This document shows, in pieces, positions 1 through 50,300 of a DNA stretch of 64,000 nt (the first letter of the stretch is position 1; each line of letters opens with the position of its first letter). A program made the translations under genes and the position numbers. Location: IMG/VR virus record IMGVR_UViG_2811995254_000001, positions 1-64,000 of that record, one strand, 5' to 3'. The DNA is from a virus (taxonomy: Duplodnaviria > Caudoviricetes). The notes beneath the pieces were generated by a model. That model was not told the origin of the DNA. It ran no database searches and saw only the letters and a list, made by a program, of their open reading frames with translations.

Positions 1-402
1 ATGTTTAATGCTCGTGTTTTAAAAGAAGAAGATTACCTAGAATTAGTTTCTTGGTGGACTTGGTGGAGATTCCCCTCTCCTTTGCAGGAACTATTGCCTA
101 ACAATGGAACATGCAGAATTATGCTTTCAAAAGAAGGTATTAATATCAGTGCAGGATTCATATACCATACTAATTCAAAAATGTGTTGGATTGAGTTTGT
201 TGTGTCGAATCCAGACTACCGCGAATCAGACAGAAAAGAAGCATTATTAGCTTTAATAAATGAACTTGGAGAAATAGCTAAAAGCCAAGGTTACAAAGTA
301 GCTTATACCAATCTTAAAAACGCTTCTTTAATCAATCACTTTTCAGATTGTCAATATGTTAAAGGTTCTGTCCAAACAATAGAGATTGTTAAGATATTGT
401 AA
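1..402 (+). CDS. GNAT-like phage protein (copy of prophage gene 41174-41575)
   Basis: 133-aa ORF nearly identical to 41174-41575; GNAT-like pattern (WIEFVVSNPDYR...A...Gy). Confidence 0.75.
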   Translation: MFNARVLKEEDYLELVSWWTWWRFPSPLQELLPNNGTCRIMLSKEGINISAGFIYHTNSKMCWIEFVVSNPDYRESDRKEALLALINELGEIAKSQGYKVAYTNLKNASLINHFSDCQYVKGSVQTIEIVKIL

Positions 403-408
403 TAAAAA

Positions 409-432
409 ACCCCTTTTACAAATAAAAGGGGT
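409..432. terminator. Intrinsic terminator between convergent genes
   Basis: ACCCCTTTTA-caaa-TAAAAGGGGT hairpin. Confidence 0.7.
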
Positions 433-438
433 AAGGGG

Positions 439-1098
439 TTATAGAAAAATAATTTCTTGTATCTCTAAAGTAGGGTTAGCACTAGAAGGAAGCTGTAAAA
501 AAGTTTCTCTAATATTAAAGGATTGACTTACTGAAATGTCATGGTATGTATGGATATGATCTAGACCTTTTGCTATTAAATAATCTACTCCATTAGTTGG
601 TGTAGATCCTTGATTGGCAACTTTAAATCCTCTGAACATAGCACGTGGGCCAAGTGAACTAGGTAGTTGAGGAACTTCATTACATTTAACTGTTTTATAT
701 GAAGACACAGGGTACTGATATGTAGGAATACTCCACTGAACATCAGAAGTAGGTAAATAAGGAAACAATGGTGGTAGAGGACCACCACCAGGATGCAGCG
801 GCTCTGGATTACGTATCATTGTATATTTACTTGATGGAGCAGGACAATAATTAAATTCATTTATATCAGTAGGATGAAAATTACTAAATGTAATAAATTC
901 ACCAGGTTTTAATTGAATATAATGACCGACAACAACATGAAGATATCGTCCTGGGTTTATAGTTGGGTCAGAAAATGTCATCTCTAGTGCATAAAGATTT
1001 TTAATAACAGTAGAAGAATTTCGTATAGTTAATATTCTAGTTGCAAAACTTGTACTAGTGAATGCAAGAACAAATAATAGTGTTATAATTTTTTTCAT
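439..1098 (-). CDS. Secreted Pro-rich hypothetical protein (cargo, unit 1)
   Basis: Signal peptide MKKIITLLFVLAFTSTSFA; paralog of 2901-3539. Confidence 0.85.
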   Translation of the reverse strand: MKKIITLLFVLAFTSTSFATRILTIRNSSTVIKNLYALEMTFSDPTINPGRYLHVVVGHYIQLKPGEFITFSNFHPTDINEFNYCPAPSSKYTMIRNPEPLHPGGGPLPPLFPYLPTSDVQWSIPTYQYPVSSYKTVKCNEVPQLPSSLGPRAMFRGFKVANQGSTPTNGVDYLIAKGLDHIHTYHDISVSQSFNIRETFLQLPSSANPTLEIQEIIFL

Positions 1099-1103
1099 AG
1101 CTG

Positions 1104-1448
1104 TTAACTGTTTGTTATTTCTAAATATTTTGTTAATGCGTAGGTCATGATATCTTCTTGTGTGGTATATCCTCCCATGCTATACTCTCCTATAGAAAGT
1201 AAAAATGCCACAGCAGTATTAAAGCTTTCGGTAGAGTATAAAAATTGCTTGATATCAATTCTACCATGAATAAAGTCTATATAAAGTTTATCAAAGTCTT
1301 TGTATTCTGTACTCTGTCTTATACTAGAATTTGTATTCAATTCAGTTTTATTATGGCTATCATTTAGATTACCAATATTTTCAGGTTCATTACTACAACT
1401 AATAGTAAAAAACGCGCATCCTATGGCTAGGAATAAGATTTTTTTCAT
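1104..1448 (-). CDS. Lipoprotein (cargo, unit 1)
   Basis: Lipobox TISC-SNE; paralog of 3545-3889. Confidence 0.85.
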   Translation of the reverse strand: MKKILFLAIGCAFFTISCSNEPENIGNLNDSHNKTELNTNSSIRQSTEYKDFDKLYIDFIHGRIDIKQFLYSTESFNTAVAFLLSIGEYSMGGYTTQEDIMTYALTKYLEITNS

Positions 1449-1599
1449 AATAAATAATTTTAAAGTTGGTTTGTTAAATATAACAAATGTTAATTTAACT
1501 TAAAAAAAACAAATATAATAATTAACATTAAATACACTTTAACTATACTATATCAAAAAAATACCTAACAACTATTCTCACATTATATATTTCAGAAAT

Positions 1600-2025
1600 A
1601 AACAACCCCTAAAAGAAAGTTTTGAAGTAAGACAACATCAACCACCAAATGGTTTAAACCCTGATGAAATAGACAAATGGGATAATAATTATGATGACTT
1701 TTCGTATGATGAAGGGAAAAATAGAATAATGAAGTATTTTAAAGGAACATTTAAACCAACAAAAAGAATAATTAAACAAAAAGCATCTTTTTTTAAACAA
1801 CTAAATACAATTGAAGAGATATTTATTTCTGGGCATTCAATGTCGAAGGTAGATCTTCCTTATTTTAAGGAATTAGATAAACATATAAACACTCATGTTA
1901 AATGGACAGTGTCATATTATAATAATGAAGAATATAACAGACATGAAGAAACACTTAATAGTATGGGGATATCAAGTACTACTATAAATTTTGTTAAACT
2001 TGATTATTTAAAAATAAACAATTAA
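1600..2025 (+). pseudogene. 5'-truncated AbiH-like (SIR2-like) abortive infection gene fragment
   Basis: GHSMSKVDLPYFKEL...KWTVSYY motif; reading frame stays open upstream of the called ATG (1729) to about 1600. Confidence 0.65.
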
Positions 2026-2071
2026 GTTTATTTACACCTTAGATAAAAAACATTTGACAAGATAAATTCTT

Positions 2072-2355
2072 CTAATTTTTCCAAACCCAAAGCACTTTCA
2101 CTGTTTTGGGTTTTTCTTTTTTCATTCAGCTTTTCAATAATTTATGCCTTAATCAAATCGCTTTTAGAAGCTTCTTTTGGATTATATAATTCAACTGGTA
2201 ATCTACTCTCCCGACAGCATTTCGCGCATTTCTTAGCAAATTTGACATGCTTTTGCAGTCATAGTATAAAGATGCTCATTTTTATTTTCATCTTTAGCAG
2301 CACCCGATATATATCCCATTCGAATTAAGCGATCTACGTTCTAATAGGTATATTG
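2072..2355 (-). pseudogene. 3' fragment of a homolog of prophage gene 15311-15889
   Basis: CCCAAAGCACTTTCACTGTTTTGGG and TTAATCAAATCGCTTTTAGAAGCTTCTTTTG shared with 15325-15597. Confidence 0.9.
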
Positions 2356-2357
2356 TA

Positions 2358-2467
2358 GATGGAGGAGAAATATATCGTATTATACAGATATAGAAATAAT
2401 AAATAATGATGATAAGCCAATTGAATTATTTGCTATTAACTCCAATATCGTAAAAAGTTATGTTTAA
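2358..2467 (+). pseudogene. 3' fragment of a homolog of prophage tail gene 40462-41181
   Basis: GATGGAGGAGAAATA...GAATTATTTGCTATTAA...AAAAAGTTATGTTTAA matches 41071-41181. Confidence 0.9.
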
Positions 2468-2861
2468 TGCTCGTGTTTTAAAAGAAGAAGATTACCTAGA
2501 ATTAGTTTCTTGGTGGACTTGGTGGAGATTCTCCCCTTCTTTGCAGGAACTATTGCCTAACAATGGAACCTGTGGAATTATGCTCTCAAAAGAAGGTATT
2601 ACTATCTGTACAAGATTCATATATTATACTAATTCAAAAATGTATTGGATTGAGTTTGTTGTGTCGAATCCAAACTATCGCGAATCGGATAGAAAAGAAG
2701 CTTTAGTTTCGCTTATCAATGAACTTGGAGAAATAGCAAAAGTACAAGATTACAAAGTACCTTATACTAATCTAAAAAATACTTCTTTAATCAATCACTT
2801 TTCAGATTGTCAATATATTAAAGGCTCAACACATACTACAGAAATGATTAAAGTGCTATAA
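2460..2861 (+). CDS. GNAT-like phage protein, copy 2
   Basis: Full-length 133-aa copy. Confidence 0.7.
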   Translation: MFNARVLKEEDYLELVSWWTWWRFSPSLQELLPNNGTCGIMLSKEGITICTRFIYYTNSKMYWIEFVVSNPNYRESDRKEALVSLINELGEIAKVQDYKVPYTNLKNTSLINHFSDCQYIKGSTHTTEMIKVL

Positions 2862-2862
2862 T

Positions 2863-2897
2863 AAAAAAACCTTTCTAAAGTTTAGAAAGGTTTTTTT
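2863..2897. terminator. Bidirectional intrinsic terminator
   Basis: AAAAAAACCTTTCTAAA-g-TTTAGAAAGGTTTTTTT palindrome. Confidence 0.8.
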
Positions 2898-2900
2898 ACA

Positions 2901-3539
2901 TTATTGAAATATAATTTCATGTGATTCTACAATTCCGGGGTTAGGAAGACTTGGCATTCTAAAATATTTTTCTTTGATATTATGTGGTGTATGTACATAA
3001 CCATCAATAAATACAGGTTCAAAATAATCTATTGCGTGAATATTGCCGTTAACGGGGTCTTTTTCACAAATTTTAAATCCTCTAAATTCTAATCGATTAC
3101 CCAATGTTGCAGGTAGTGGTGGTACAACGTCACAATTCTCTGAAATATATGGATTGTAATCTTCATCAGGATTGTATGGATCATATATATAATTTATCCA
3201 TCTAAACGCATAAGTATCAGGAGGGATGATAGGAATAGGAGGGTCTGGATATTCAGAATGAATAACTTTATGAGTACTATCTGAAGATGGACAGAATTCA
3301 AAACCATTTATGCCAGATTGAATATAACTAAACGTAATAAAATCTCCAGGCTCTAATACAATATAGTCTAATATCGACCTATATGTATGGTAGATTGTTG
3401 TTTGGACTGAATCGTATTGCATCTCTAATGCAAAAAAATATTTAGTTTCGTTAGATAGATTTCTTATTGTTAAAACTCTACCTGCAAAAGTTGTGGTAGT
3501 GAATGCTAAAAGGAATATAAGTAGTGTTATTTTTTTCAT
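2901..3539 (-). CDS. Secreted hypothetical protein (cargo, unit 2)
   Basis: Signal peptide; shares LTIRN, LEM, PG.FITFS, FRGFK and EIIF blocks with 439-1098. Confidence 0.85.
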   Translation of the reverse strand: MKKITLLIFLLAFTTTTFAGRVLTIRNLSNETKYFFALEMQYDSVQTTIYHTYRSILDYIVLEPGDFITFSYIQSGINGFEFCPSSDSTHKVIHSEYPDPPIPIIPPDTYAFRWINYIYDPYNPDEDYNPYISENCDVVPPLPATLGNRLEFRGFKICEKDPVNGNIHAIDYFEPVFIDGYVHTPHNIKEKYFRMPSLPNPGIVESHEIIFQ

Positions 3540-3544
3540 AGCGA

Positions 3545-3889
3545 TTAACTGTTTTTGATTTCGAAATATTTTGTCAAAGCATAGGCCATAATTTCTTCTT
3601 GAGTTGTATATCCACCGAAACTGTATTCACCAATAGACAGCAAAAAAGTTACAGCAATATCAAAGCTATCATTAGAATACAAAAACTGCTTAATATCAAT
3701 TATCTCATAAATATAGTCCATATAGAGTTTATCGATTGCCTTATATTCATCGCTCTCTTTTATAACTGAATAATCAGCTAACTCAGTTTTATTATGGCTA
3801 TCATTTAGATTACCAATGTTTTCTGGTTCATTACTGCAACTAACAGTCAAAAACGCACATCCTATAGCTAGGAAGAAGATTTTTTTCAT
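3545..3889 (-). CDS. Lipoprotein (cargo, unit 2)
   Basis: Lipobox TVSC-SNE. Confidence 0.85.
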   Translation of the reverse strand: MKKIFFLAIGCAFLTVSCSNEPENIGNLNDSHNKTELADYSVIKESDEYKAIDKLYMDYIYEIIDIKQFLYSNDSFDIAVTFLLSIGEYSFGGYTTQEEIMAYALTKYFEIKNS

Positions 3890-4044
3890 AATATATAATT
3901 TAAAAATTGGTTAGTCTAAATATACATAATGTTAATTTAACGTAAATAAACAAATAGAACTAATTAACATTTAATACACTTTAACTATACTATATCAAAA
4001 AAACATACTTAACAAATGCTCTCGCACTACATATCTCAGAAATA

Positions 4045-4468
4045 AACAACCCCCAAAGAAAGTTTTGAAGTAAGACGACATCAACCACCAAATGGTTTAA
4101 ATCCTGATGAAATAGACAAATGATATAATAATTATGATGACTTTTCATATGATGAAGGGCAAAATAGAATAATGAAGTATTTTAAAGGAACATTTAAACC
4201 ACCAAAAAGAATAATTAAACAAAAAGCATCTTTTTTTAAACAACTAAATACAATTGAAGAGATATTTATTTTTGGACATTCACTGTCAAAAGCAGATCTT
4301 CCTTATTTTAAGGAATTAGATAAACATATAAACACTCATGTTAAATGGACAGTGTCATATTATAATAATGAAGAATATAACAGACATGAAGAAACACTTA
4401 ATAGTATGGGAATATCAAGTACTGCTATAAATTTTGTTAAACTTGATAATTTAAAAATAAACAATTAA
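4045..4468 (+). pseudogene. AbiH-like fragment, copy 2
   Basis: GHSLSKADLPYF motif; in-frame TGA upstream at ~4121. Confidence 0.6.
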
Positions 4469-4514
4469 GTTTATTTACACCTTAGATAAAAAACATTTGA
4501 CAAGATGAATTCTT

Positions 4515-4907
4515 CTAATTTTTCCAAACCCAAAGCACTTTCACTGTTTTGGGTTTTTCTTTTTTATTCAGCTTTTCAATAATTTATGCCTTAATCAAAT
4601 CGCTTTTAGAAGCTTCTTTTGGATTATATAATTCAACTGGTAATCTACTCTCCCGACAGCATTTCGCGCATTTCTTAGCAAATTTGACATGCTTTTGCAG
4701 TCATGGTATAAAGATGCTCATTTTTATTTTCAACTTTAGCTGCACGCGATATATATCCCATTCGAATTAAACAATCCACGTTCTAATAGGTATATCGTAG
4801 ATAGAGGAGAAATATATGGTATTATACAGATAGAAACGATAAATAATGATGATAAGCAAGTTGAATTATTTGCTATTAACTCCAATATCATAAAAAGTTA
4901 TGTTTAA
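4515..4907. pseudogene. Second copy of the fused 15311-15889 / 40462-41181 gene fragments
   Basis: Matches 2072-2467. Confidence 0.85.
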
Positions 4908-5300
4908 TGCTCGTGTTTTAAAAGAAGAAGATTACCTAGAATTAGTTTCTTGGTGGACTTGGTGGAAATTCCCCCTCCTTTGCAGGAACTATTGCCTAAC
5001 AATTGAATCTGCGGAATTATGCTTTCAAAAGAAGGTATTAATATCTGTGCGGGATTCATATACTATACTAATTCAAAAATGTGTTGGATAGAGTTTGTTG
5101 TGTCAAATCCAAACTATCGCGAATCGGATAGAAAAGAAGCTTTAGTTTCGCTTATCAATAAACTTGGAGAAATAGCTAAAAGCCAAGGTTACAAAGTAGC
5201 TTATACTAATCTTAAAAACGCATCTTTAATCAATCACTTTTCAAATTGTCAATATATTAAAGGCTCAACACATACTACCGAAATGATTAAGATATTATAA
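4900..5300 (+). pseudogene. GNAT-like gene copy 3, frameshifted
   Basis: 1-nt loss near 4971-4978 plus GGA>TGA at ~5005; split into ORFs 4900-5091 and 5019-5300. Confidence 0.85.
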
Positions 5301-5301
5301 T

Positions 5302-5336
5302 AAAAATATCAGAGTTTAACTACTCTGATATTTTTT
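5302..5336. terminator. Bidirectional intrinsic terminator
   Basis: AAAAATATCAGAGT...ACTCTGATATTTTTT. Confidence 0.8.
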
Positions 5337-5358
5337 GATATTTGTAGTGATAATATAT

Positions 5359-5709
5359 CTAATTATCTGAAGGTATGGATGGTTCTATTATAAGGCAGTT
5401 TGATATATTTGAAATATTATATCCATGTAATGACATGTATCCGTTGCCATTCTGATCAATATCTGTTGGATATAATTGATACAACTCCTGAGATCTTTGG
5501 TAAGCCCCTGCTTCTGTATATCTACCATATTCAACATAGCTTGTTGTATACTTTGTAGGATTGTTATTTATCCATTGAGTTCTATGAACTTCAAATTTAT
5601 AACAAGCTTTTATTGGCTGAATAATTTGATCATCTTTAATAATTTCGCCTGAATTAGCAAATGTTCCTAATGACATCGTCAATGCTAATCCTAATAATAA
5701 TTTCTTCAT
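5359..5709 (-). CDS. Small secreted protein (cargo, unit 3)
   Basis: Signal peptide MKKLLLGLALTMSLGTFA, shared start with 41620-41946; two Cys. Confidence 0.85.
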   Translation of the reverse strand: MKKLLLGLALTMSLGTFANSGEIIKDDQIIQPIKACYKFEVHRTQWINNNPTKYTTSYVEYGRYTEAGAYQRSQELYQLYPTDIDQNGNGYMSLHGYNISNISNCLIIEPSIPSDN

Positions 5710-6279
5710 AATAAATAATTTTAAAATTGGTTAGTCTAAATATACGTAATGTTAATTTAACCTAAATATACAAGCGGAACTAATTAACATTTAATACACT
5801 TTAACTACACTATATCTAAAAAAACATACCTAACAACTACTCTCATACTACATATCTAATTTAACTAGATAGAACATCCAAATCTAAAACAATTCAATAT
5901 AGTCCATAAAGCCTTTATGCGGCATTATTACAGCTATACTACATACTACACTATTATAATGACAGTAGGGCCGATACCTCTACTGGGTCTTTTCATTCTA
6001 AAATCAAATACTTTAGAATGATGTATAGGGGAGTTAGAGATAAAGCATTCTTTCTCTTTAGATTGACTAAACTTTTTACCTAAGAAAATATAAATGCAAT
6101 AGGGTGTATAGGATGCGACCCTTCTCCTTCCTTCGTCAGGATGACAAAAATGGAAGAGATTTTTTTATTCTTCAGGACATACGAATCGGAAAAGCTTACT
6201 TAAAAAAAACACTCTTTTTTATGCTATCCCCAAGTTTTGTACTTGATCCGAAATCTACAATTTGGCTTAATTGTATAAA

Positions 6280-6307
6280 AAAACCCTACACAAATGTGTA
6301 GGGTTTT
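6280..6307 (-). terminator. Terminator downstream of the tRNA 3' remnant
   Basis: AAAACCCTACAC-aaat-GTGTAGGGTTTT. Confidence 0.8.
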
Positions 6308-6314
6308 CTTTTTT

Positions 6315-6331
6315 GTGACGATGACAGGATT
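6315..6331 (-). other. Putative prophage att site (tRNA 3'-end duplicate, possibly tRNA-Arg)
   Basis: Reverse complement AATCCTGTCATCGTCAC resembles the 3' half of a T arm plus acceptor end; followed by a terminator; phage genes start immediately to the right. Confidence 0.6.
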
Positions 6332-10089: not shown

Positions 10090-10160
10090 GCGCATGTGGT
10101 GTAGCGGTAGCACAACAGTCTCCAAAACTGTTTGCAGAGGTTCGAATCCTTTCTTGCGTG
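10090..10160 (+). tRNA. tRNA-Trp (CCA)
   Basis: ACAGT-CTCCAAA-ACTGT anticodon arm; GGTTCGAATCC T arm; acceptor GCGCATG/CTTGCGT with one mismatch. Confidence 0.85.
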
Positions 10161-10166
10161 CAAACT

Positions 10167-10601: not shown

Positions 10602-10675
10602 AGTCTATTAGCTCAGTTGGCTAGAGTGCTTGCTTGTCACGCAAGAGGTCGCGAGTTCGAATCTCGTATAGACTG
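10602..10675 (+). tRNA. tRNA-Asp (GTC)
   Basis: Acceptor AGTCTAT/ATAGACT; CTTGC-TTGTCAC-GCAAG; GTTCGAATC T loop. Confidence 0.92.
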
Positions 10676-10736
10676 CAATTCATATTTTATGGTTTTTGGT
10701 TAATAACCAGTTTGTTACTTCTGTAAAAAGTAATGG

Positions 10737-14496: not shown

Positions 14497-15144
14497 ATGG
14501 AAATATCAGAATTAACATTAAAGCTAATAATACTTTTAACACCTGGTATTTTAGCAACTACCATATATAAGCGGCTGACAATTAGACATAAAGAACAATC
14601 AGATTTTATGTTTGTTGTTATCTCAATCATGTTTGGTATGTTCTCTTATTTAATTCTTCAAATTTTTAATTATTTGATCTCTTCGATAAATAATTTTTGT
14701 TCCAAAAGTTTGGTAAAGTTTGAAACTATTAAAACTTTCTCCGATTTATCAAATGGAAACTCAATTCCATATTCAGAAGTAATTTTGGCATGTGTTATAA
14801 GTATAATTTTAGGATTCTCAATTTCAAAGCTTGATCACTCGAAATTAATTAATACTTTAGCTAGAAAATGGAAAATTTCAAACAAATATGGTGATGAGAA
14901 CTTATATTCATATTTCTTAAATTCTCCCGATATTAATTGGGTTTATGTTAGAGTAATTGAAAATTCAATAACTTATCTTGGTTGTGTTGAATCATTTTCT
15001 GAAACTCCAGATAATAAAGAAATTGTATTAGGTCAAGTAACAGTTTATACTTATCCTGACAGTAAAAAAATGTATGAAATAGATCGTATATACCTTGTGT
15101 TTCCTAAAGATAAAGTAATTATTGAACAAGCAAACCTTAAATAA
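14497..15144 (+). CDS. Moron: multi-TM membrane protein (DUF6338-like)
   Basis: LLTPGILA...three TM helices...YLGCVESFSE; TATATTTG upstream. Confidence 0.7.
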   Translation: MEISELTLKLIILLTPGILATTIYKRLTIRHKEQSDFMFVVISIMFGMFSYLILQIFNYLISSINNFCSKSLVKFETIKTFSDLSNGNSIPYSEVILACVISIILGFSISKLDHSKLINTLARKWKISNKYGDENLYSYFLNSPDINWVYVRVIENSITYLGCVESFSETPDNKEIVLGQVTVYTYPDSKKMYEIDRIYLVFPKDKVIIEQANLK

Positions 15145-15310: not shown

Positions 15311-15889
15311 TTACCTCACACGAGCCCAAAGCACTTTCACTGTTTTGGGCTTTTCTTTTTTATTGAGTTTCTCAATGATTTCTGATTTAATCAAATCGCT
15401 TTTAGAAGCTTCTTTTGAGTTGTAAAGTTCAATAGGTATATCTATCTCCCCAGCTAACATTTCGTGCATTTCTTGGCAAATCTGACGTGCTTTCACAGTC
15501 ATTGTATAAAGGTGCTCGTTTTTATTTTTGCCTTTAGCTGCACGCGAGACATATCCCATTCGGATTAAACTATCGATGTTCTTGTAGGTATATCGGATTT
15601 GGGCGATTTCTTTTAGATCGCCTGTCATGAAATAGTTTTTAGGAACCAAGTATAAAATGGTTTCGAGTAACGTAACGCTGATATCGTACTTTCGTTGTAA
15701 GGCATGACGCACATATCCAAAGTTCTCGAGTAGATCATAACCTTTGTAAATCCTCGCATACTGTAGCCTGGTATATACTTCCTTTTCTTGTCCTTTGTGA
15801 AAGGCTTCTACAATTTTTGTTTTATCATTCTCCATTCTTTTCTTAGCCAATGGAGGAAGTTTGAACATCAAATCTAATCGCTTGCTCAT
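15311..15889 (-). CDS. Phage protein with winged-helix-like region
   Basis: IDSLIRMGYVSR...LYTMTVKARQIC. Confidence 0.65.
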   Translation of the reverse strand: MSKRLDLMFKLPPLAKKRMENDKTKIVEAFHKGQEKEVYTRLQYARIYKGYDLLENFGYVRHALQRKYDISVTLLETILYLVPKNYFMTGDLKEIAQIRYTYKNIDSLIRMGYVSRAAKGKNKNEHLYTMTVKARQICQEMHEMLAGEIDIPIELYNSKEASKSDLIKSEIIEKLNKKEKPKTVKVLWARVR

Positions 15890-40465: not shown

Positions 40466-41181
40466 AAACATTAGGGTTTAAAGAAAAAGAAACTGGATGG
40501 GTGTCATTCTTTAGTTTTTTGCCTGACGCTTATTTACGACTTGGCGGAACTGCCTTTGTTATTAAAGACGGAAACCTTTGGCAGCAGAATGATAAATCTA
40601 ATCCAATTACCAATACTTTTTTTGGTGTAAAGTATCCATCAAAAATAAATACAGTGTTTAATGAGGTCCAAACCGATGACAAGATTTTCAAAACATTTGT
40701 AATTGAAGGTAGCTCGTCTTGGGATGTTGAAATAAAGACTAACCTTACAAAAACTTCTTTAAAAGCTACGGACTTCAATAAAAAGGAAAGTAGATACTTT
40801 GCTTATTTGCGAGGAAATGAACAAGAAGGAGATTTGAACGGAAACGCACAAGGAGTCGGAATTTGTCAAAGTAATAATTCTGATACTTTGTTCTTTAAAA
40901 GAGTTTCAGAACTTACAAATGTTGGGGATCAACTATTTAAATTAGATGGGGATCAATCACTTTTAATTGGAAATATAATTGATAAATCAGAAACTTCTAT
41001 TCGAGTTGATGTCAACCTAGTGGACAGTTATAATGGGTTCTTTATCCTATCTAGCAGAAACGCTAGAATTGATGGAGGAGAAATACGCGGTTATTATGCG
41101 GATATAGAAATGATAAATAATGATGATAAGCAAGTTGAATTATTTGCTATTAATTCTAATATCGTAAAAAGTTATGTTTAA
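40462..41181 (+). CDS. Tail structural protein
   Basis: GWVSFFSFLPD...KKE...IRGYY; coupled to muzzle gene. Confidence 0.75.
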   Translation: MKTLGFKEKETGWVSFFSFLPDAYLRLGGTAFVIKDGNLWQQNDKSNPITNTFFGVKYPSKINTVFNEVQTDDKIFKTFVIEGSSSWDVEIKTNLTKTSLKATDFNKKESRYFAYLRGNEQEGDLNGNAQGVGICQSNNSDTLFFKRVSELTNVGDQLFKLDGDQSLLIGNIIDKSETSIRVDVNLVDSYNGFFILSSRNARIDGGEIRGYYADIEMINNDDKQVELFAINSNIVKSYV

Positions 41182-41575
41182 TGCTCGTGTTTTAAAAGAA
41201 GAAGATTACCAAGAATTAGTTTCTTGGTGGACTTGGTGGAGATTCCCCCCTCCTTTGCAGGAAATGTTACCTAACAATGGAACCTGCGGTATTATGCTTT
41301 CAAAAGAAGGTATTAATATCTGTGCAGGATTCATATACTATACTAATTCAAAAATATGTTGGATAGAGTTTGTTGTGTCAAATCCAGACTATCGCGAATC
41401 GGATAGAAAAGAAGCTTTAGTTTCGCTTATCAATGAACTTGGCAAAATAGCTAAAAGCCAAGGTTACAAAGTAGCTTATACCAATCTTAAAAACGCTTCT
41501 TTAATCAATCACTTTTCAGATTGTCAATATATTAAAGGCTCTACAGAAACAACTGAGATGATAAAAGTGTTATAA
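41174..41575 (+). CDS. GNAT-like phage protein (intact prophage copy)
   Basis: Lies between tail and ejection genes, as GNAT-like genes do in many podoviruses. Confidence 0.75.
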   Translation: MFNARVLKEEDYQELVSWWTWWRFPPPLQEMLPNNGTCGIMLSKEGINICAGFIYYTNSKICWIEFVVSNPDYRESDRKEALVSLINELGKIAKSQGYKVAYTNLKNASLINHFSDCQYIKGSTETTEMIKVL

Positions 41576-41619
41576 TATTAAAAGCGACTTCAAAAAGTCG
41601 CCTTTAATATTATAAACTA

Positions 41620-41946
41620 TTAATTTCCTATTGTTCCCTTAGCAGGAGTAAAACTTGCAATCTTAACACCGTTCGGTAGTTCTTGATACTCACATAGGTG
41701 GTCAAATATCATTTGTGTAATTTGATCAGGATGTTGACTTAGAAGTGAATTGCAAACTGAAAAATGAAAAGTACCTGCTGCCCCATAATAAACGGATGAA
41801 AAAGGCCAACAGTAACTAGATAAATTTTCACTAATAACACTAATTTCTACACAAAAATCAGGATTAATATCTGGCGGTGTATTCCCTGTTTGAGCAAAAG
41901 CTCCCATTGAAAAACAAAACGCTAATCCTAATAATAATTTCTTCAT
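41620..41946 (-). CDS. Moron: small secreted Cys-containing protein
   Basis: Signal MKKLLLGLAFCFSMGAFA; antisense to late genes; hairpin at 41579-41607. Confidence 0.8.
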   Translation of the reverse strand: MKKLLLGLAFCFSMGAFAQTGNTPPDINPDFCVEISVISENLSSYCWPFSSVYYGAAGTFHFSVCNSLLSQHPDQITQMIFDHLCEYQELPNGVKIASFTPAKGTIGN

Positions 41947-42136
41947 AATATATAATTTTAAAAATTGGTTAGTTTAAATGTATATAATGTTAATTTGATT
42001 AAAAATTAAATACCCTACATTTAACTTAATGTACAGTTTTACTATACATTAAAATAGTTTTCATCTATCGAAATATAAATTACAATAGATTTTATTTATT
42101 ATCTTTGAGTAAAGTGATAACTAAAATCTATTTTTT

Positions 42137-44358: not shown

Positions 44359-47300
44359 ATGGATAATAAAAAATACAGTTATAACGGAAAAGAATACTCC
44401 TATTCAGATTTACAATCAAAATATGGAGATAAAACAGATCAAGCTATTTCTAAGTTTGGCTTTAAAGAAGTAATTCCTGAGCCAAAATACACATTTAATG
44501 GTAAGGAATATTCTCGTTCACAACTACAAGACAAATATGGAGATAGGACTGATGAGGCTATTTCTAAATTTGGATTTGAACAAGTAGGTTCAAAAAAAAA
44601 AGACATTTCCGCTTCTTCTACTCCTCAGCAAAGTTTGGAATCCAATTCAGGCAATGGTTCTTCGGTTTCTCAAAACAATAAAGTAATTAATCAAAGTAAT
44701 TCAAAAATAACGAAGCTGGCTCAAGACACTGAGTCAGCTAAAGTTGTTTCTAATGAAAAAATAAAGGAGATTACACAATCAGTTGATGATGAAATAAATC
44801 AAGTAGGGATTATAAATAATACCAAGGCTTATGCAAAAAAGGGGTTTAATAAATTAATTGATGGAATATTAACTATTACTCCCTTACATGATTCTGAAAG
44901 AGTCGCATTTAAAAATAGATTTGGTTTAGAAGAAAGTCCTTTATCTGATGAGCTCAAAGAAATAAAAAAACAAGAACAAGACGAAATTATCTTAGCCAAA
45001 AAAGAAAATAGACCTGCTCGAACATTAACTGATGAAGAGAGAATATCTAAAGCTAGACAGTTAAAAATAGATAAGAGAATAAAGTCTGAATCTGATAGTC
45101 AGGTTAGAGCATTTATGAAAGATGCAGAAAACAACATTGATGAATATGGAGTAAGTGACAAAGATAAATTACTTATTTACAATAAAAGTAAGGAGCAATC
45201 TATTTCGTATAAGGATAAAGACCTATTAAAAAGGGCAGATCTATTTAGTAAAGTAGTCTTAAACACTGAAAATGAAATAAAAGAAGTGCGTGATTCTTTT
45301 AGAAATGGAAAAATGACTAAAGATGAGGCACAAAGCAAATTAGACTTCTTAAATAGAAGAAGAAACAACTCCATAGCAGAGGGTATTAGAAATCTAGAAG
45401 AATTTAATAGTAAAGATGATGAATTAGGTACTGTTAAGGATAATATTGATCTACTCAAAAGAAATTACAATTGGATAACTAATATCACAAGAAGTGTTGA
45501 TGCTGGAGTAGATAAAATGGCATCAGGAATTATTGACTCTGGACGTTGGTTAAATGAAATTGTAGGCCAAGATCAATATTCTGCGGACAACATCATGTTT
45601 ATGTCTATGTCTAATGATTTTAAAAAATCATATCAGGCAAAAACAGAAAGTTTAATGAAACCTATATCTGTTGATGATATTGACTTTGATAGCGAACATC
45701 TTTTATCTGATTTTGGTAGTTATGCTTCGACTTTATTAGGACAACAACTTCCTATAATGGCAGCCGTTCTTACGGGAGCACCTGGTATAGCTTCTTTAGG
45801 ATTTTCTTCCGCTGGGGAAAAATATGATGAAATGATAATGGAAGAGGCAAAAGGCGAAGAAAACTATAGCCATACACAAAAAACATTTGCCCCATTAGGT
45901 TATGGTTTATCAGAAACGGGATCTGCATTAATAGATCGTATGATTATGATGAATACCTCTAGAGTGATTAGAGCGGCAACATCATTAGAGAAAAAAGAGA
46001 TTGCTAAAGGGTTTGCTAAGAATGTTTTTATAAAACCAACTCTTCATACATTAAAAAGTACAGCTATTGAAGGACTTGAAGAGGGGGCAACAGAAATTGC
46101 TCAAAATCTTATTGATATTTATTTTCTAGATAAAAAAGATGTTGATGTTTATGACAATGTAAAAGACGCAGTAGTTGCTGGAGGACTAATGGGAGGAGCT
46201 ATGTCTTCACCTGCATTAGTATTCTCTCCATATGGGAGTATTAGAAATTCAATTGAAAGATTTTCGACTGAACAAAATTTAAGACAGGCACAAAACATAG
46301 TTTTTAAACTTAGTGAAGCTCTGAATAGTGATAATATATCTGAAACAGAATTTGGAATTATTAAAGACCAATTCGATAAAGCTACAATTAAAACTATTGA
46401 TATTGCAAAAACAGAAGCTAGTAAAATAGCTCAATTATCCAATGATGAATTTAATGCAATAAATGAAATTGAACGAGGTAAAAAAGAAATTAAATCAAAA
46501 GCTCAAGAGATCCTAGATGGAGAATTAAGTCAAGAATTGAAAGATGAAGTTTTAAAGGGATTAAAAGATGAATATTCTACACTAGAAAACCAACGTATAG
46601 GTATTTTAAACAGAGATTCTAACGCTTTACTTAATCTACTTCCACAAGAAGAAGTTATTCGCTTAAAAGACGAAGCAAGTAGAGAATTGATGCAAGAGAA
46701 AAATCCTGATGGTACCAAAAACATTACCATTGAGGATAAAGAAATTTCTGAACGTGCTTTAGAAAATTACATAAAACAAAGTTTACCAAATGAAACAGTA
46801 CAAACAGAAGATATTGTTGATGATGGAAACATTCGACCTTCAAATGAACAGTTGGACTCAGTACAAGGAGAATTTGAGAACGGGAAGAAAGGAGATAATC
46901 AAACACAAGAGATACAATACACCGAAACAGCTGAACGACCTCAAGTAATCAAAGCTTCTGATAATGGTCGAGAATACACCATTTCAAATGAAGAGGGCAG
47001 AATAGTGTTTAAAGACAGAGATGGTAATACCCCAAGTAAAAGAACATCAAATAGACTTGCTTTAGAGTATGCTAAACAAACTAACTTAACAGAAGGCAAA
47101 CGTGCCCATGAAGTTGAAGGCGTTATTGATAGTAGCGAATTAGCTAATATGACAGTTAAGGAAGCAAATAAATTCATTGCAGAAAAGTCTGAAAGTCCAA
47201 TTGAAATTGCTGAAACTATCCTTGGTAATGAGATTGAAGATTATAGAAATGGAGTTGATTATAAGCAAAAGGTGATTGCAGAAAACCTAGGCCATGTTAG

Positions 47301-50300
47301 TCGTGAAAGTTTTATCCAAAACTCTGACGAGGTACATGCAAAAGAAGGAGGAAGTATTCCCATTCAGTACCTACGTAAAGATGGAACTCCACTAGATACT
47401 AAAGCAAAAGAACTAAGCGAAATCGCAGGAATTGAAATTACAGAACAAGATATTGTCGATTTTATTCTTGAAAATCCAACCGGTTCTCAAACATTTTTGA
47501 ACAATGGTTTCCATTCTGATATTAATTCGTTAAAAGCAAGATTTGAAGAGTTAACAGGACTTCCTGCAACTAATGAAGTTATTCAGGAAATTGTAAATCA
47601 GAATGAAAGAAAACTACAACTTCAAGAACAAATGACTTCTATAGATTTTATGTCTGATGAAGAATTACTACATTTACTTAATCAAAGAGAACAATATGAG
47701 CAAGAAACAGCTAACGCCAGCACAAAGGGAGTACGTGAAATTGCAGATAGCAAAAACAATGAAGGAGAATCCAGAGTACAACAAGATGGTTCAAGAGAGA
47801 ATCAAGGAACTGAAAGCTCAGGAAGCCGAGAAGCCGAAGGAGAACGAGTAAACCTACCAAAGTCCACTTTCAATAAACTAGTACAAACGTTCCAAAAATT
47901 CTTTGGAGCAGGAAATGTACATAGTGATTCTAACAAACTTGCCAAAGTATTAGGACAAGATCCTAATAGTGTATTTTTCCAAAAACAATGGGAAGGGATT
48001 AATGATACATTTAATTCTGAGTTAGAACAACTTCAAAAAGGTACCTTGCCTAAAGGTCATATCTTCCAATTAGGCTCACCTACTAGAATACTTCAAGCAG
48101 CAGGTATTCCTAACTTACCTATTGAATTAGCTGCAAGTAGATTGAAAGATAAGTCTAAACAAGATAATCACCCTTTTGAATTATCAGATATTAAGGATTT
48201 GGCAATTGCAGTTCAAAATCCCCTAGCTGTATTTGATAGTTCTACTCAACTTGGAAGTTTTGTAGTACTTACAGAATTAACTCATAACGGAAAAAATTTC
48301 ATTGCTGCTATTGAAGCTAATAAGAAAAAAGAGCTTATTGAGATCAATGACATTAGAAGTGTATATCCAAGAAATAATATGCAGATTGTATCAGCAATAA
48401 ACGATAACCTAACAAGGTACGCTGATAAACAAAAAATGAGAGAATGGTTCTCTAAACAGCGGTTCAATTCCGCTGAGGTTAAAGGCTTATTCTCTCGTGC
48501 TTCAAATTTAGTACAAAAATTTGAGAATCCAAAAGTTAATGATGTTGATTTTCAGGTTGATTACAAAAAGTTAGCATCTGATAATAAATACACTCAACCA
48601 AAAGTACCAACTCAAAACATTTTCTTTAATGATGTAGAAGTATTAAATAGAGAAACAGAAAATATGGTAGGTAAATTGGTGGATGAAGGCAAAAATGTTT
48701 CTGTTCAATCTGTTGATGTGGTTAATATTATACCTACTCAAAAAAATGTAAACATCAATAATTTAAAAGAGGTCCAAGATGTAAGAGATCGACCATTATT
48801 ATTTAAACAAGGTGATAAGTATTATGTAATTGATGGACACCACAGAATCTCTAATGAAATTCTAGAAGGTGAGAAAAAAGTGGAAGCGGATGTATATGAT
48901 GCAGATGTTCAATTTATGCAAACTCCTGATGGAACCATTTGGGGAGCAACCTTTTTGAATGAGCAAGGACAGCGCGAAATCTACATCAATGAATCAGCGT
49001 TAAGCCCTGAAACCTTATTGCATGAAGTTTATCACCCATTTGATGACATGATGAAACAGGCGTCAGAAAATAGTGATGTACACGCTCTAGTCGCTATTGG
49101 TAGACTTGATAAACTAGCAAAAGAAAATGGGTATTTAGAAGCCGTTCAAAGCAATCCTAACTACGCGAATAAGCCATTAGAACAACAACAAGCCGAAGCT
49201 AGAGTTCAAATGATTGGCGAAATCGGGAATAAACAATTAGATAAGTCTTTCTACGAAAAATTAGAAGCAGCCGTTATCGATGCTATTGAATGGTTAGCCA
49301 AACAGTTTGGAGTATCGCTTAAAAATTATTCTCCTGAGCAAATTATCAATCTAAAACTTGAAGATATTGTAAAAGCGAGTTTGGCCAGTGCTCAAAAAGG
49401 AGAGTTTGAAACTAAAAACACTTCTCCTGTTAAGATAAAAGATAATATAATGTCCGAATTAGAAAGCGGTAAAATAAATATAGATGATGCTATATCTAGA
49501 GAATCGGAAATATTAAGTAACTATAATGATGTTTATGGAAAAGACAGTAATCAAGTTTCTGAACAAAAGAAAGTTGTTGAATCTCTTAAACAATTTAAAT
49601 CAGAATCAAGTAAACCTAGGGTGCAATTTTCTATAAGTTCTAAAGTGAAAGATTCTTTTGATAAGTTAAATAACAAAATAAATAAAAGTATAGGGCGTGA
49701 TTTAACCTTATCATTAGAGAGTTCAACAAAGGCAAATAATGAAGTTATTTCAAAAGTAAAAAGATTATGGAATAACACATTTAAAAGCAGTGCTGGTCTA
49801 AGTTCTTTTAATAAACAAAATGTTGATTTTTTTGAAATTATTAAAGGGTTAGAAAGAAGTGAATCTAGTGTTATAGATGGTCTAAAATATGAAACAAAAC
49901 AATTTAAACTGATACTTAGTAAAATAGGAAATAAAGACACATTAAAAGTTAAAAACGCAAAATTAAGATTGGTAAATGACTATATGTCTGGAATGGATGT
50001 AGATCTATCTTTTCTTGATGCAGAAACTATTTCTCAAATAGATTTTTTCAGATCTAGAATAGATAATCTATCTAATAATATTATAGGAGTATTGCTGAAT
50101 AAAGCTTCGAAATTAGAAGATAGTTTATCAAAACAAAAAGAAAACTCTTTAACTTCTGATAGAATAAAAGAATCTATTATCAATGTCTATAAAGTCATTG
50201 AAAAAATAGAAGATAATAAAGGTAAATACATTACTCGTTCATATCAAGCCTTCCTAGATAACAAATATATAGATAGGCTTACTGTTTCTAGATCGAATAT

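Follow-up and report, generated by a model that had tools for sequence, protein, structure and literature searches.

A putative phage moron cassette with a common leader and signal peptide and differing cargo in a Pachyviridae-like prophage and an adjoining tandem array

The stretch considered here, positions 5359–5860, lies in a window of 64,000 bases of DNA (bases 1–64000 of a 75,802-base IMG/VR record classed as a provirus). We read it as part of a phage moron cassette, namely its front end and cargo, and hold that cargo and terminator in such cassettes have been swapped by recombination with related phages; to this reading we assign a probability of about 0.68. A cassette of this kind would begin with a promoter and 5′ untranslated region (5′UTR) leader of ~110 nucleotides (nt) and continue with a signal peptide of 18 codons, a small mature domain that is secreted and a hairpin terminator of its own; it would be transcribed antisense to a conserved phage gene of 133 amino acids (aa). 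One cassette, with cargo of what we call family B, would sit in the structural module of the resident prophage, inserted in what is an empty spacer in close relatives; three further cassettes would lie in a 2.44-kb tandem array at 1–5860, the third unit of which contains the stretch in question and carries cargo of family A. What can be seen directly in the DNA is the anatomy of the cassette, how far its homology reaches, the slot without an insert in relatives and the mosaic pattern of divergence among the copies. The features on which the argument turns are the following (ORF, open reading frame).

4900–5300, plus strand: unit 3 copy of the 133-aa gene (phrog_17252), with a 1-nt deletion near 4970
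5301–5358, no strand assigned: unit 3 spacer with a bidirectional hairpin terminator at 5302–5335 (−16.0 kcal/mol, z −6.6)
5359–5709, minus strand: unit 3 cargo, family A, ORF for a 116-aa predicted secreted protein
5656–5709, minus strand: family A signal peptide, residues 1–18, followed by a mature domain of 98 aa with two conserved cysteines
5710–5860, minus strand: unit 3 leader, promoter-like region and 5′UTR, with the blocks AAATTAACATT, TAnATTTA and AACCAATTTTAAAATT
41174–41575, plus strand: prophage copy of the 133-aa gene, the last before the slot (phrog_17252; GNAT-like at best)
41576–41619, no strand assigned: prophage slot terminator, hairpin at ~41570–41615 (−20.2 kcal/mol, z −8.2)
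41620–41946, minus strand: prophage cargo, family B, a 108-aa predicted secreted protein with a signal peptide at residues 1–18 and four conserved cysteines in the mature domain
41947–42060, minus strand: prophage leader, forming with 41576–41946 an insertion of ~485 bp that is not in relatives

Limits of homology around the cargo

Both minus-strand ORFs, 5359–5709 and 41620–41946, open with ATGAAGAAATTATTATTAGGATTAGC, and 26 of their first 27 coding nt are identical. The original prediction held that the leader and the first 26 coding nt were exactly shared. The coding figure stands, whereas the leader is homologous rather than exact: unit 3 and the prophage agree at 77/111 positions (over 110 nt), as compared with 100/110 between units 2 and 3, and the final ~58 nt upstream of the ATG contain ~5 differences and one indel. 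A degenerate 32-nt leader pattern matches the window three times against 0.00 expected (100 shuffles), and an nhmmer leader profile matches the 75.8-kb record at exactly four places (E 4e-24 to 4e-17). By this homology, the leader is common to all four slots, namely units 1–3 and the prophage slot, and not just to unit 3 and the prophage.

The coding homology does not end at +26. Over nt 28–57, within the signal-peptide sequence, the unit 3 and prophage genes are still identical at 18/30 positions, and five genes of families A and B from three genomes agree at 16–19/30. Since unrelated signal peptides of the same record agree at 5–10/30, the constant part extends beyond +26 to the signal-peptidase site. 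When full-length profiles of the two families were compared with hhalign, the alignment was restricted to residues 1–26 (probability 95.6%). Families A and B thus have signal peptides that are homologous from end to end, with the boundary at the cleavage region (~+57). On the far side of this boundary, the earlier observation that the mature domains have no visible similarity holds up well. Their Smith–Waterman score of 23 lies below the average of shuffled sequences, 25.3 (z −0.54; 212/300 shuffles score as high), and the profile–profile probability is 0.35%, or 0.6% with wider alignments.

The conserved leader contains the box TAnATTTA ~23–30 nt upstream of the ATG. In a passage of one study, the flavobacterial sigma-A −7 box is given the consensus TAnnTTTG (PMC9723704). 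By our own reading, made by eye, the leader box resembles such a −7 element, and the leader is predicted to act as the promoter for the cargo. Leader and signal peptide together would then form a common expression-and-export front end.

On the downstream side, identity between slots falls from 87–93% in the 133-aa gene to 28–51% in the spacers, one comparison giving 93% and 34%, respectively. Similarity had been thought to stop at the stop codon of this gene; the fall does lie there, although erosion is already evident over the final ~35 nt of the gene. The four spacers carry four different strong hairpins (−12.7 to −20.2 kcal/mol), none of which was equalled in stability by any of 200 shuffles, and a terminator scan recovered three of the four. 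That all four slots have different terminators, as first proposed, is therefore borne out by hairpin structure and spacer identity alike. Each cassette thus has its own factor-independent terminator, as expected of a phage moron.

The 133-aa gene itself belongs to phrog_17252 (E 1.5e-61) and is found at 42–44% identity in 80 GenBank phage records, comprising Flavobacterium elemo phages as well as Cellulophaga, Tenacibaculum and Maribacter phages. The GNAT name under which it first went is unproven. No Pfam family matches it at E≤0.1; the best PDB match of a profile of 12 homologues is 1mk4 (YqjY), a weak one at E 0.45; and the nearest Atlas cluster was automatically named GNAT, PF00583 being present on 12% of the members of one cluster.

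The slot in related phages and traces of exchange

Related loci with downstream sequence were available in six cases (L013–L018, with 133-aa proteins 42–93% identical; L013 and L014 are one phage in two assemblies). At 6/6 of these loci, the spacer after the 133-aa gene is at most ~80 bp long and contains no ORF, and the next structural gene follows; L017 has no spacer at all. The slot is likewise empty in elemoE. Alignment places the insertion at 41576 to ~42060, that is, the terminator, the 108-aa gene and the leader. Judged by these alignments, the prophage cassette is an insertion between genes that are directly adjacent in related phages. In the Cellulophaga phages phi18:3 and phi46:3, the slot is occupied by three small reverse genes, the first of which encodes a 67-aa secreted protein with two cysteines. 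This protein is conserved in both phages (L010 3374–3577; L011 3469–3672), and the next two genes differ between them.

The cassettes of the array allow the divergence of adjoining segments to be compared. Units 1 and 2 are made up as follows.

1–1590: unit 1, with the 133-aa gene at 1–402 (plus strand) and a terminator at 409–432
439–1098, 1104–1448 and 1449–~1590, all minus strand: unit 1 cargo, consisting of a 219-aa secreted protein and a 114-aa lipoprotein, and leader
2460–4040: unit 2, with the 133-aa gene at 2460–2861 (plus strand) and a terminator at ~2863–2897
2901–3539, 3545–3889 and 3890–~4040, all minus strand: unit 2 cargo, consisting of a 212-aa secreted protein and a 114-aa lipoprotein, and leader

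At the nucleotide level, the two units are 97.4 and 93.8% identical in the backbone, 79% in the lipoprotein gene, 55% in the 219/212-aa gene and 51% in the terminator. Synonymous divergence (dS) rises from 0.076 in a fragment of an AbiH gene present in both to 0.39 in the 133-aa gene and reaches 0.84 in the 219/212-aa gene and 1.10 in the lipoprotein gene; it thus differs more than 10-fold between adjoining segments. Segments of a single unit accordingly differ in age, so that diverged alleles must have been imported, or the backbone homogenized, and fast protein change by itself does not suffice. The ratio of nonsynonymous to synonymous divergence (dN/dS) is 0.12 in the lipoprotein gene, 0.22–0.25 in the 133-aa gene and 0.64 in the 219/212-aa pair; because purifying selection acted on the first two, they were working genes for most of their divergence. 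Within the 133-aa gene, 12 informative sites lie in positional blocks, two of them joining unit 1 with unit 2, six unit 1 with the prophage and four unit 1 with unit 3.

From these patterns we infer recombination as the mechanism of exchange, in which the 133-aa gene on one side and the leader and signal peptide on the other would provide homologous flanks for the replacement of cargo and terminator. The slot empty at all six loci, the uneven dS and the switching of partners along the 133-aa gene all indicate that the exchanged unit is cargo plus terminator. The original prediction had likewise named the mature domain and terminator as the exchanged module, and this part is retained; its breakpoints are corrected to ~+57 or, for the lipoproteins, to the ATG.

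The leader also occurs apart from the window. It is found ahead of a 264-aa lipoprotein gene in another slot of a related phage genome, G002 (nhmmer E 6e-18), where homology stops at the ATG; this lipoprotein and those of units 1 and 2 have the boundary of shared sequence at the same point. Two genes resembling family A (126 and 121 aa) also have leader-like sequences, though weaker ones, ahead of them; they lie in what appears to be host flank beside the attachment (att) site, a status indicated by comparison of G002 with a second genome, G001. In this G002 flank, just outside the att core, the tandem family-A-like genes (L030 2599–2979 and 3360–3725) have identical signal peptides and lie next to a gene for a 347-aa membrane protein. 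In a prophage of a metagenome-assembled genome (MAG), G005, the 5′UTR core AACCAATTTTAAAATT stands ahead of two genes that run antisense among early genes, one encoding a family B member (104 aa) and the other a 132-aa protein with a family-B-type signal peptide. By eye, this 132-aa protein resembled a bridge between families A and B, but profiles did not support this: its mature part scored 0.5 bits with the family A profile and 4.9 bits with that of family B. Also set aside were nine matches of the leader pattern in metagenome contigs, which are chance matches in AT-rich DNA with neither extended homology nor a following secreted gene.

The tandem array and the attachment region

Units 1–3 repeat with a period of ~2,440 bp. 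Each consists of the 3′ part of a 192-aa gene, the 3′ end of a 239-aa structural gene, the 133-aa gene, the cassette and a C-terminal AbiH fragment, of which the following copies accompany the cassettes.

1555–2025, plus strand: AbiH C-terminal fragment (~140 codons), an open frame abutting the leader (PF14253, positions 197–260/260, E 5.8e-15)
~2089–2357: 192-aa-gene fragment, unit 1 copy
~2357–2459: second 239-aa-gene fragment, ahead of unit 2
~4000–4468: second copy of the AbiH fragment
4529–4797, plus strand: 3′ fragment of the 192-aa gene, ~270 bp, like 15325–15595 (84.5% identity)
4797–4899, plus strand: 3′ fragment of the 239-aa structural gene, degenerate, ~103 bp, like 41071–41173

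PADLOC matches nothing but this fragment, which covers its AbiH model at positions 257–340/343 only, and the fragment is not a full-length AbiH. Counterparts of the 192-aa-gene fragment are present in relatives (G003:9282–9554 and G001:12025–12303). In the intact prophage, the slot that matches the AbiH fragment (14497–15144) is occupied by an unrelated 215-aa gene without a family match.

The units had been taken for parallel phage slots. This proved mistaken: they are tandemly amplified copies of a deleted phage remnant, in which distant pieces of the phage have been brought together. Followed leftward from the att region, the pieces within a unit keep the order of the phage map, from which two large stretches have been deleted, and the fragment junctions are identical among the units that possess them. 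Since the junctions are the same and the order collinear, a single deleted remnant that was subsequently amplified is the simplest history, and most likely the array derives from an earlier related prophage in this way. Since the first base of the record is that of the unit 1 ATG, further parts of the array may lie to its left. In unit 3, the lack of a C at 4970 has shifted the frame of the 133-aa gene; as a contig from the public run X4 carries that C, the break is strain-specific.

Two further features bear on the position of the array relative to the resident prophage.

6264–6331: att-like region, with a terminator arm of phage type at 6264–6310 and a core-like stretch at ~6311–6331, TTTTGTGACGATGACAGGATT
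74507–75802, at the record end: integrase-like gene, 431 aa, tyrosine-integrase-like

Homology to the early region of related phages begins at the att-like region. A 21-nt att core was deduced from the comparison of G001, in which the integrase gene lies beside an XRE gene, with G002, in which the two are at opposite ends; on the integrase side of G002, the core abuts a tRNA-like 3′ end. In the window, the core has diverged and the integrase DNA is 68% identical to that of relatives, which suggests a different tRNA target. The public runs X4 and X5 contain the array side at ≥90% likeness, and their coverage ends at ~6346. In run X5, a family A unit is joined to the AbiH fragment that follows it (5776→3957), and run X4 has one unit-3-like copy. 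That the array lies outside the current prophage, just beyond the att core, and varies between strains is moderately supported by these data. G001 and G002 resemble the unintegrated and integrated forms of one phage, and the core regions compared are, besides 6264–6331 of the window, L032 2673–2740, L043 796–863 and L030 ~1197–1217.

As for the phage, the record encodes terminase, portal and virion genes (PHROG matches), and the 239-aa structural protein has the C-terminal domain of the crAss muzzle protein (PF25729, Pfam). Gene order around the 133-aa gene equals that of phi18:3 and phi46:3 (Pachyviridae), namely a large structural protein, a 239-aa-like protein, the 133-aa protein, the slot for reverse genes and structural proteins. 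The phage is a Pachyviridae-like, integrase-bearing prophage, the family likeness being read from gene order. Some environmental Pachyviridae genomes are stated, in part of one report, to encode integrases (PMC8776804). All cargo homologues with a source name come from Myroides, and the host is therefore probably Myroides. The early region of the prophage contains genes for tRNA-Trp (10090–10161) and tRNA-Asp (10602–10676). A 2,715-aa ORF in the structural module (44359–52506) may encode an ejected giant protein of the crAss/N4 kind; its counterpart in elemoE bears the annotation of a DUF3293-containing structural protein. Near the integrase end, outside the window (G000 71282–72287), a 108-aa lipoprotein and a 222-aa secreted protein are encoded between regulator genes, and are candidates for further envelope proteins expressed in the lysogen.

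Cargo, competing explanations and known systems

In families A and B, the signal peptide ends in FA and the mature part begins with N or Q; there is no cysteine at +1 and hence no lipobox, while the 114-aa proteins of units 1 and 2 carry L-x-S-C. The cargo of families A and B is predicted from these features to be exported to the periplasm through a type I signal peptide. Family A has seven relatives and a weak match to phrog_4895 (E 1.6e-5). Its AlphaFold2 model has a core, residues 30–110, at a predicted local distance difference test (pLDDT) score above 95, in which a helix and a third strand follow two long strands. Foldseek returned no match to this model at E≤0.001, and the best VIA hits were PurS (Z 5.6) and, at Z 4–5, the small phage inhibitors Dmd, AcrIC9 and p56; as all of these Z values are within the stated noise, family A has no significant structural neighbour. 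An Atlas search with family A gave no usable feature match. Family B has eight close relatives and a few remote ones, all of ~100 aa, and its model (pLDDT 43.7) is unusable.

Relatives were sought more widely with limited success. Pfam, NCBIfam and PADLOC contain no match for any of the six cargo proteins; a tblastn search of GenBank phages with family A found nothing; and among 79 and 210 candidate stretches of viral contigs for the family A and family B profiles, respectively, no relative was confirmed. The family A profile has no match in two MAGs and 61 genomes of the genus group of G005 (evidently not Myroides), and the family B profile matched 2/401 genomes of the family group, one of them by the signal peptide alone. 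The GC content of the cassettes (0.29–0.34, as compared with 0.325 for the record) is unremarkable.

The main rival to swapping supposes that one ancestral secreted-protein gene gave rise to both families and also to the 132-aa protein of G005, leader and signal peptide having stayed constant while the mature part diverged under diversifying selection. We regard this as unlikely, though several observations speak for it and hence against the reading preferred here. The signal peptide is the best conserved part of family B, even among members that are 27–35% identical, so that a constant signal peptide combined with a fast-changing mature part is possible without swapping. In Myroides, paralogue pairs appear to be adjacent, as judged from consecutive accession numbers (MGQ8868566/67, family B) or locus tags (HX004_09650/55, family A); P0007 and P0003, apparently neighbours by locus tag in one Myroides genome, have a common signal peptide and are ~40% alike overall. 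Families A and B have signal peptides of one length that fit a single consensus, total protein lengths are similar, the first cysteine is similarly placed (residue 36 in A, 32 in B), and the two models, of which that of family B is poor, have a like order of strands and helix. It is the unusable family B model, together with this common order of elements and placement of the first cysteine, that allows the rival to survive. The dN/dS of 0.64 in the 219/212-aa pair, moreover, indicates that fast protein evolution does occur at the locus. Common ancestry is, however, difficult to reconcile with the hhalign probabilities given above for the mature domains, with cysteine frameworks that are unlike (two in A, four in B) and with the unrelated terminators of the slots. 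In addition, this leader also stands ahead of genes whose signal peptides are not homologous to these, those of the lipoproteins of units 1 and 2 and the 264-aa lipoprotein of G002, and the uneven dS between units 1 and 2 calls for imported segments.

Some further results count against the preferred reading of a moron cassette with swapped cargo. A sigma-70 scan gave 40 sites against 42.3 expected, and thus no excess, with a model that does not represent Bacteroidota promoters. The RNA run X24 places 0 reads on the stretch, which bears on expression neither way. No cargo protein matches a defence or exclusion family in PADLOC. The placement of the array outside the prophage is drawn from contig coverage, in which holes prove nothing. 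The leader pattern has no match in other viral contigs, so that the case for the generality of the cassette is drawn from three related phages.

A resemblance to polymorphic effector cassettes, in which a constant delivery region is joined to exchangeable toxic C-terminal domains and accompanied by immunity genes, had been proposed at the outset and is abandoned here as very improbable. A constant N-terminus with a variable remainder, alternative cassettes in tandem and the phage or mobile context would all fit. The constant part of the protein is, however, the cleavable 18-aa signal peptide alone; the cargo consists of single domains of 90–98 aa without toxin or other database match, the family A fold finds nothing above noise, and unit 3 and the prophage slot each contain a single ORF between leader and terminator, leaving no immunity partner. 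Finally, chance resemblance among AT-rich Bacteroidota promoters and MKK-type signal peptides, for which a genome of ~32% GC, the frequency of MKK starts in the record and the AT-rich chance matches in metagenomes might be cited, has a negligible claim in view of the shuffle expectation for the leader pattern, the nhmmer E values and the far lower agreement among unrelated signal peptides.

What the cargo does is a matter of tentative guesswork by analogy: the proteins might act in the periplasm to protect the lysogen, through superinfection exclusion or through immunity to periplasm-acting attack. It could further be imagined that leader and signal peptide are a plug-in adaptor by which small periplasmic protective proteins are traded among Myroides phages and the phage remnants next to their att site. 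The array would then be a reservoir of cassettes, integron-like in effect, that exchanges cargo with each incoming phage by homologous recombination at the 133-aa gene and the leader, thereby shifting the range of phages or attackers that the lysogen withstands. We consider this extended scheme rather improbable. If the exchange reading is correct, the locus would be a compact and testable case of the packaging of accessory genes by temperate flavobacterial phages, with a fixed promoter, 5′UTR and signal-peptide front end reused for unrelated cargo and a decayed prophage storing alternatives beside the integration site. It would also single out, as candidate protectors of the lysogen, three families of small exported proteins that are restricted to Myroides: A, B and the 219-aa family with its partner lipoprotein. 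To our knowledge, the biology of Myroides phages is almost undescribed, and no such cassettes were found in the literature on Myroides and prophages, as judged from the titles and abstracts of part of it.

The original examples of morons come from lambdoid phages. Such elements are described, in part of one paper, as independent transcription units inserted between phage genes (PMC3594210). The cassettes described here resemble them in being inserted between genes that are adjacent in relatives, in having their own terminator and apparently their own promoter, in lying on the strand opposite the late operon of a temperate carrier and in bearing cargo unrelated to virion function. They differ in that unrelated cargo share one leader, and some of them one signal peptide, in that copies persist as a tandem array in a decayed remnant and in that no compositional anomaly is apparent.

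Llp of T5, Cor of phi80 and N15 and Spackle of T4 are envelope exclusion proteins. Like the present cargo, exclusion proteins of this type are small exported proteins or lipoproteins, often encoded next to tail or receptor-binding genes and with their own promoter; the slot described here follows muzzle-like structural genes, PF25729 being found on the 239-aa protein. Unlike them, the cargo has no sequence or fold match to such proteins, and families A and B have no lipobox. A prophage-encoded member of this class is Ltp of Streptococcus thermophilus phage TP-J34, according to a portion of one study (PMC3952083).

The locus also has something in common with two other kinds of variation. Lambdoid phages undergo modular exchange at conserved boundary sequences, and here too short conserved flanks bracket non-homologous inserts and divergence is mosaic; in contrast, the flank here is a predicted promoter–export module and not a gene-boundary linker. 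There are secreted families in which a conserved signal sequence precedes a hypervariable mature part, and Bacteroidales contain arrays of acquired immunity genes. The constant signal peptide, varying mature domain and adjacent Myroides paralogues are reminiscent of these, whereas the cysteine frameworks of A and B differ and no recombinase-linked cassette sites were seen. Taken together, the locus is a tidy, somewhat unusual instance of known phage mosaicism, and the shared front end is its unusual part.

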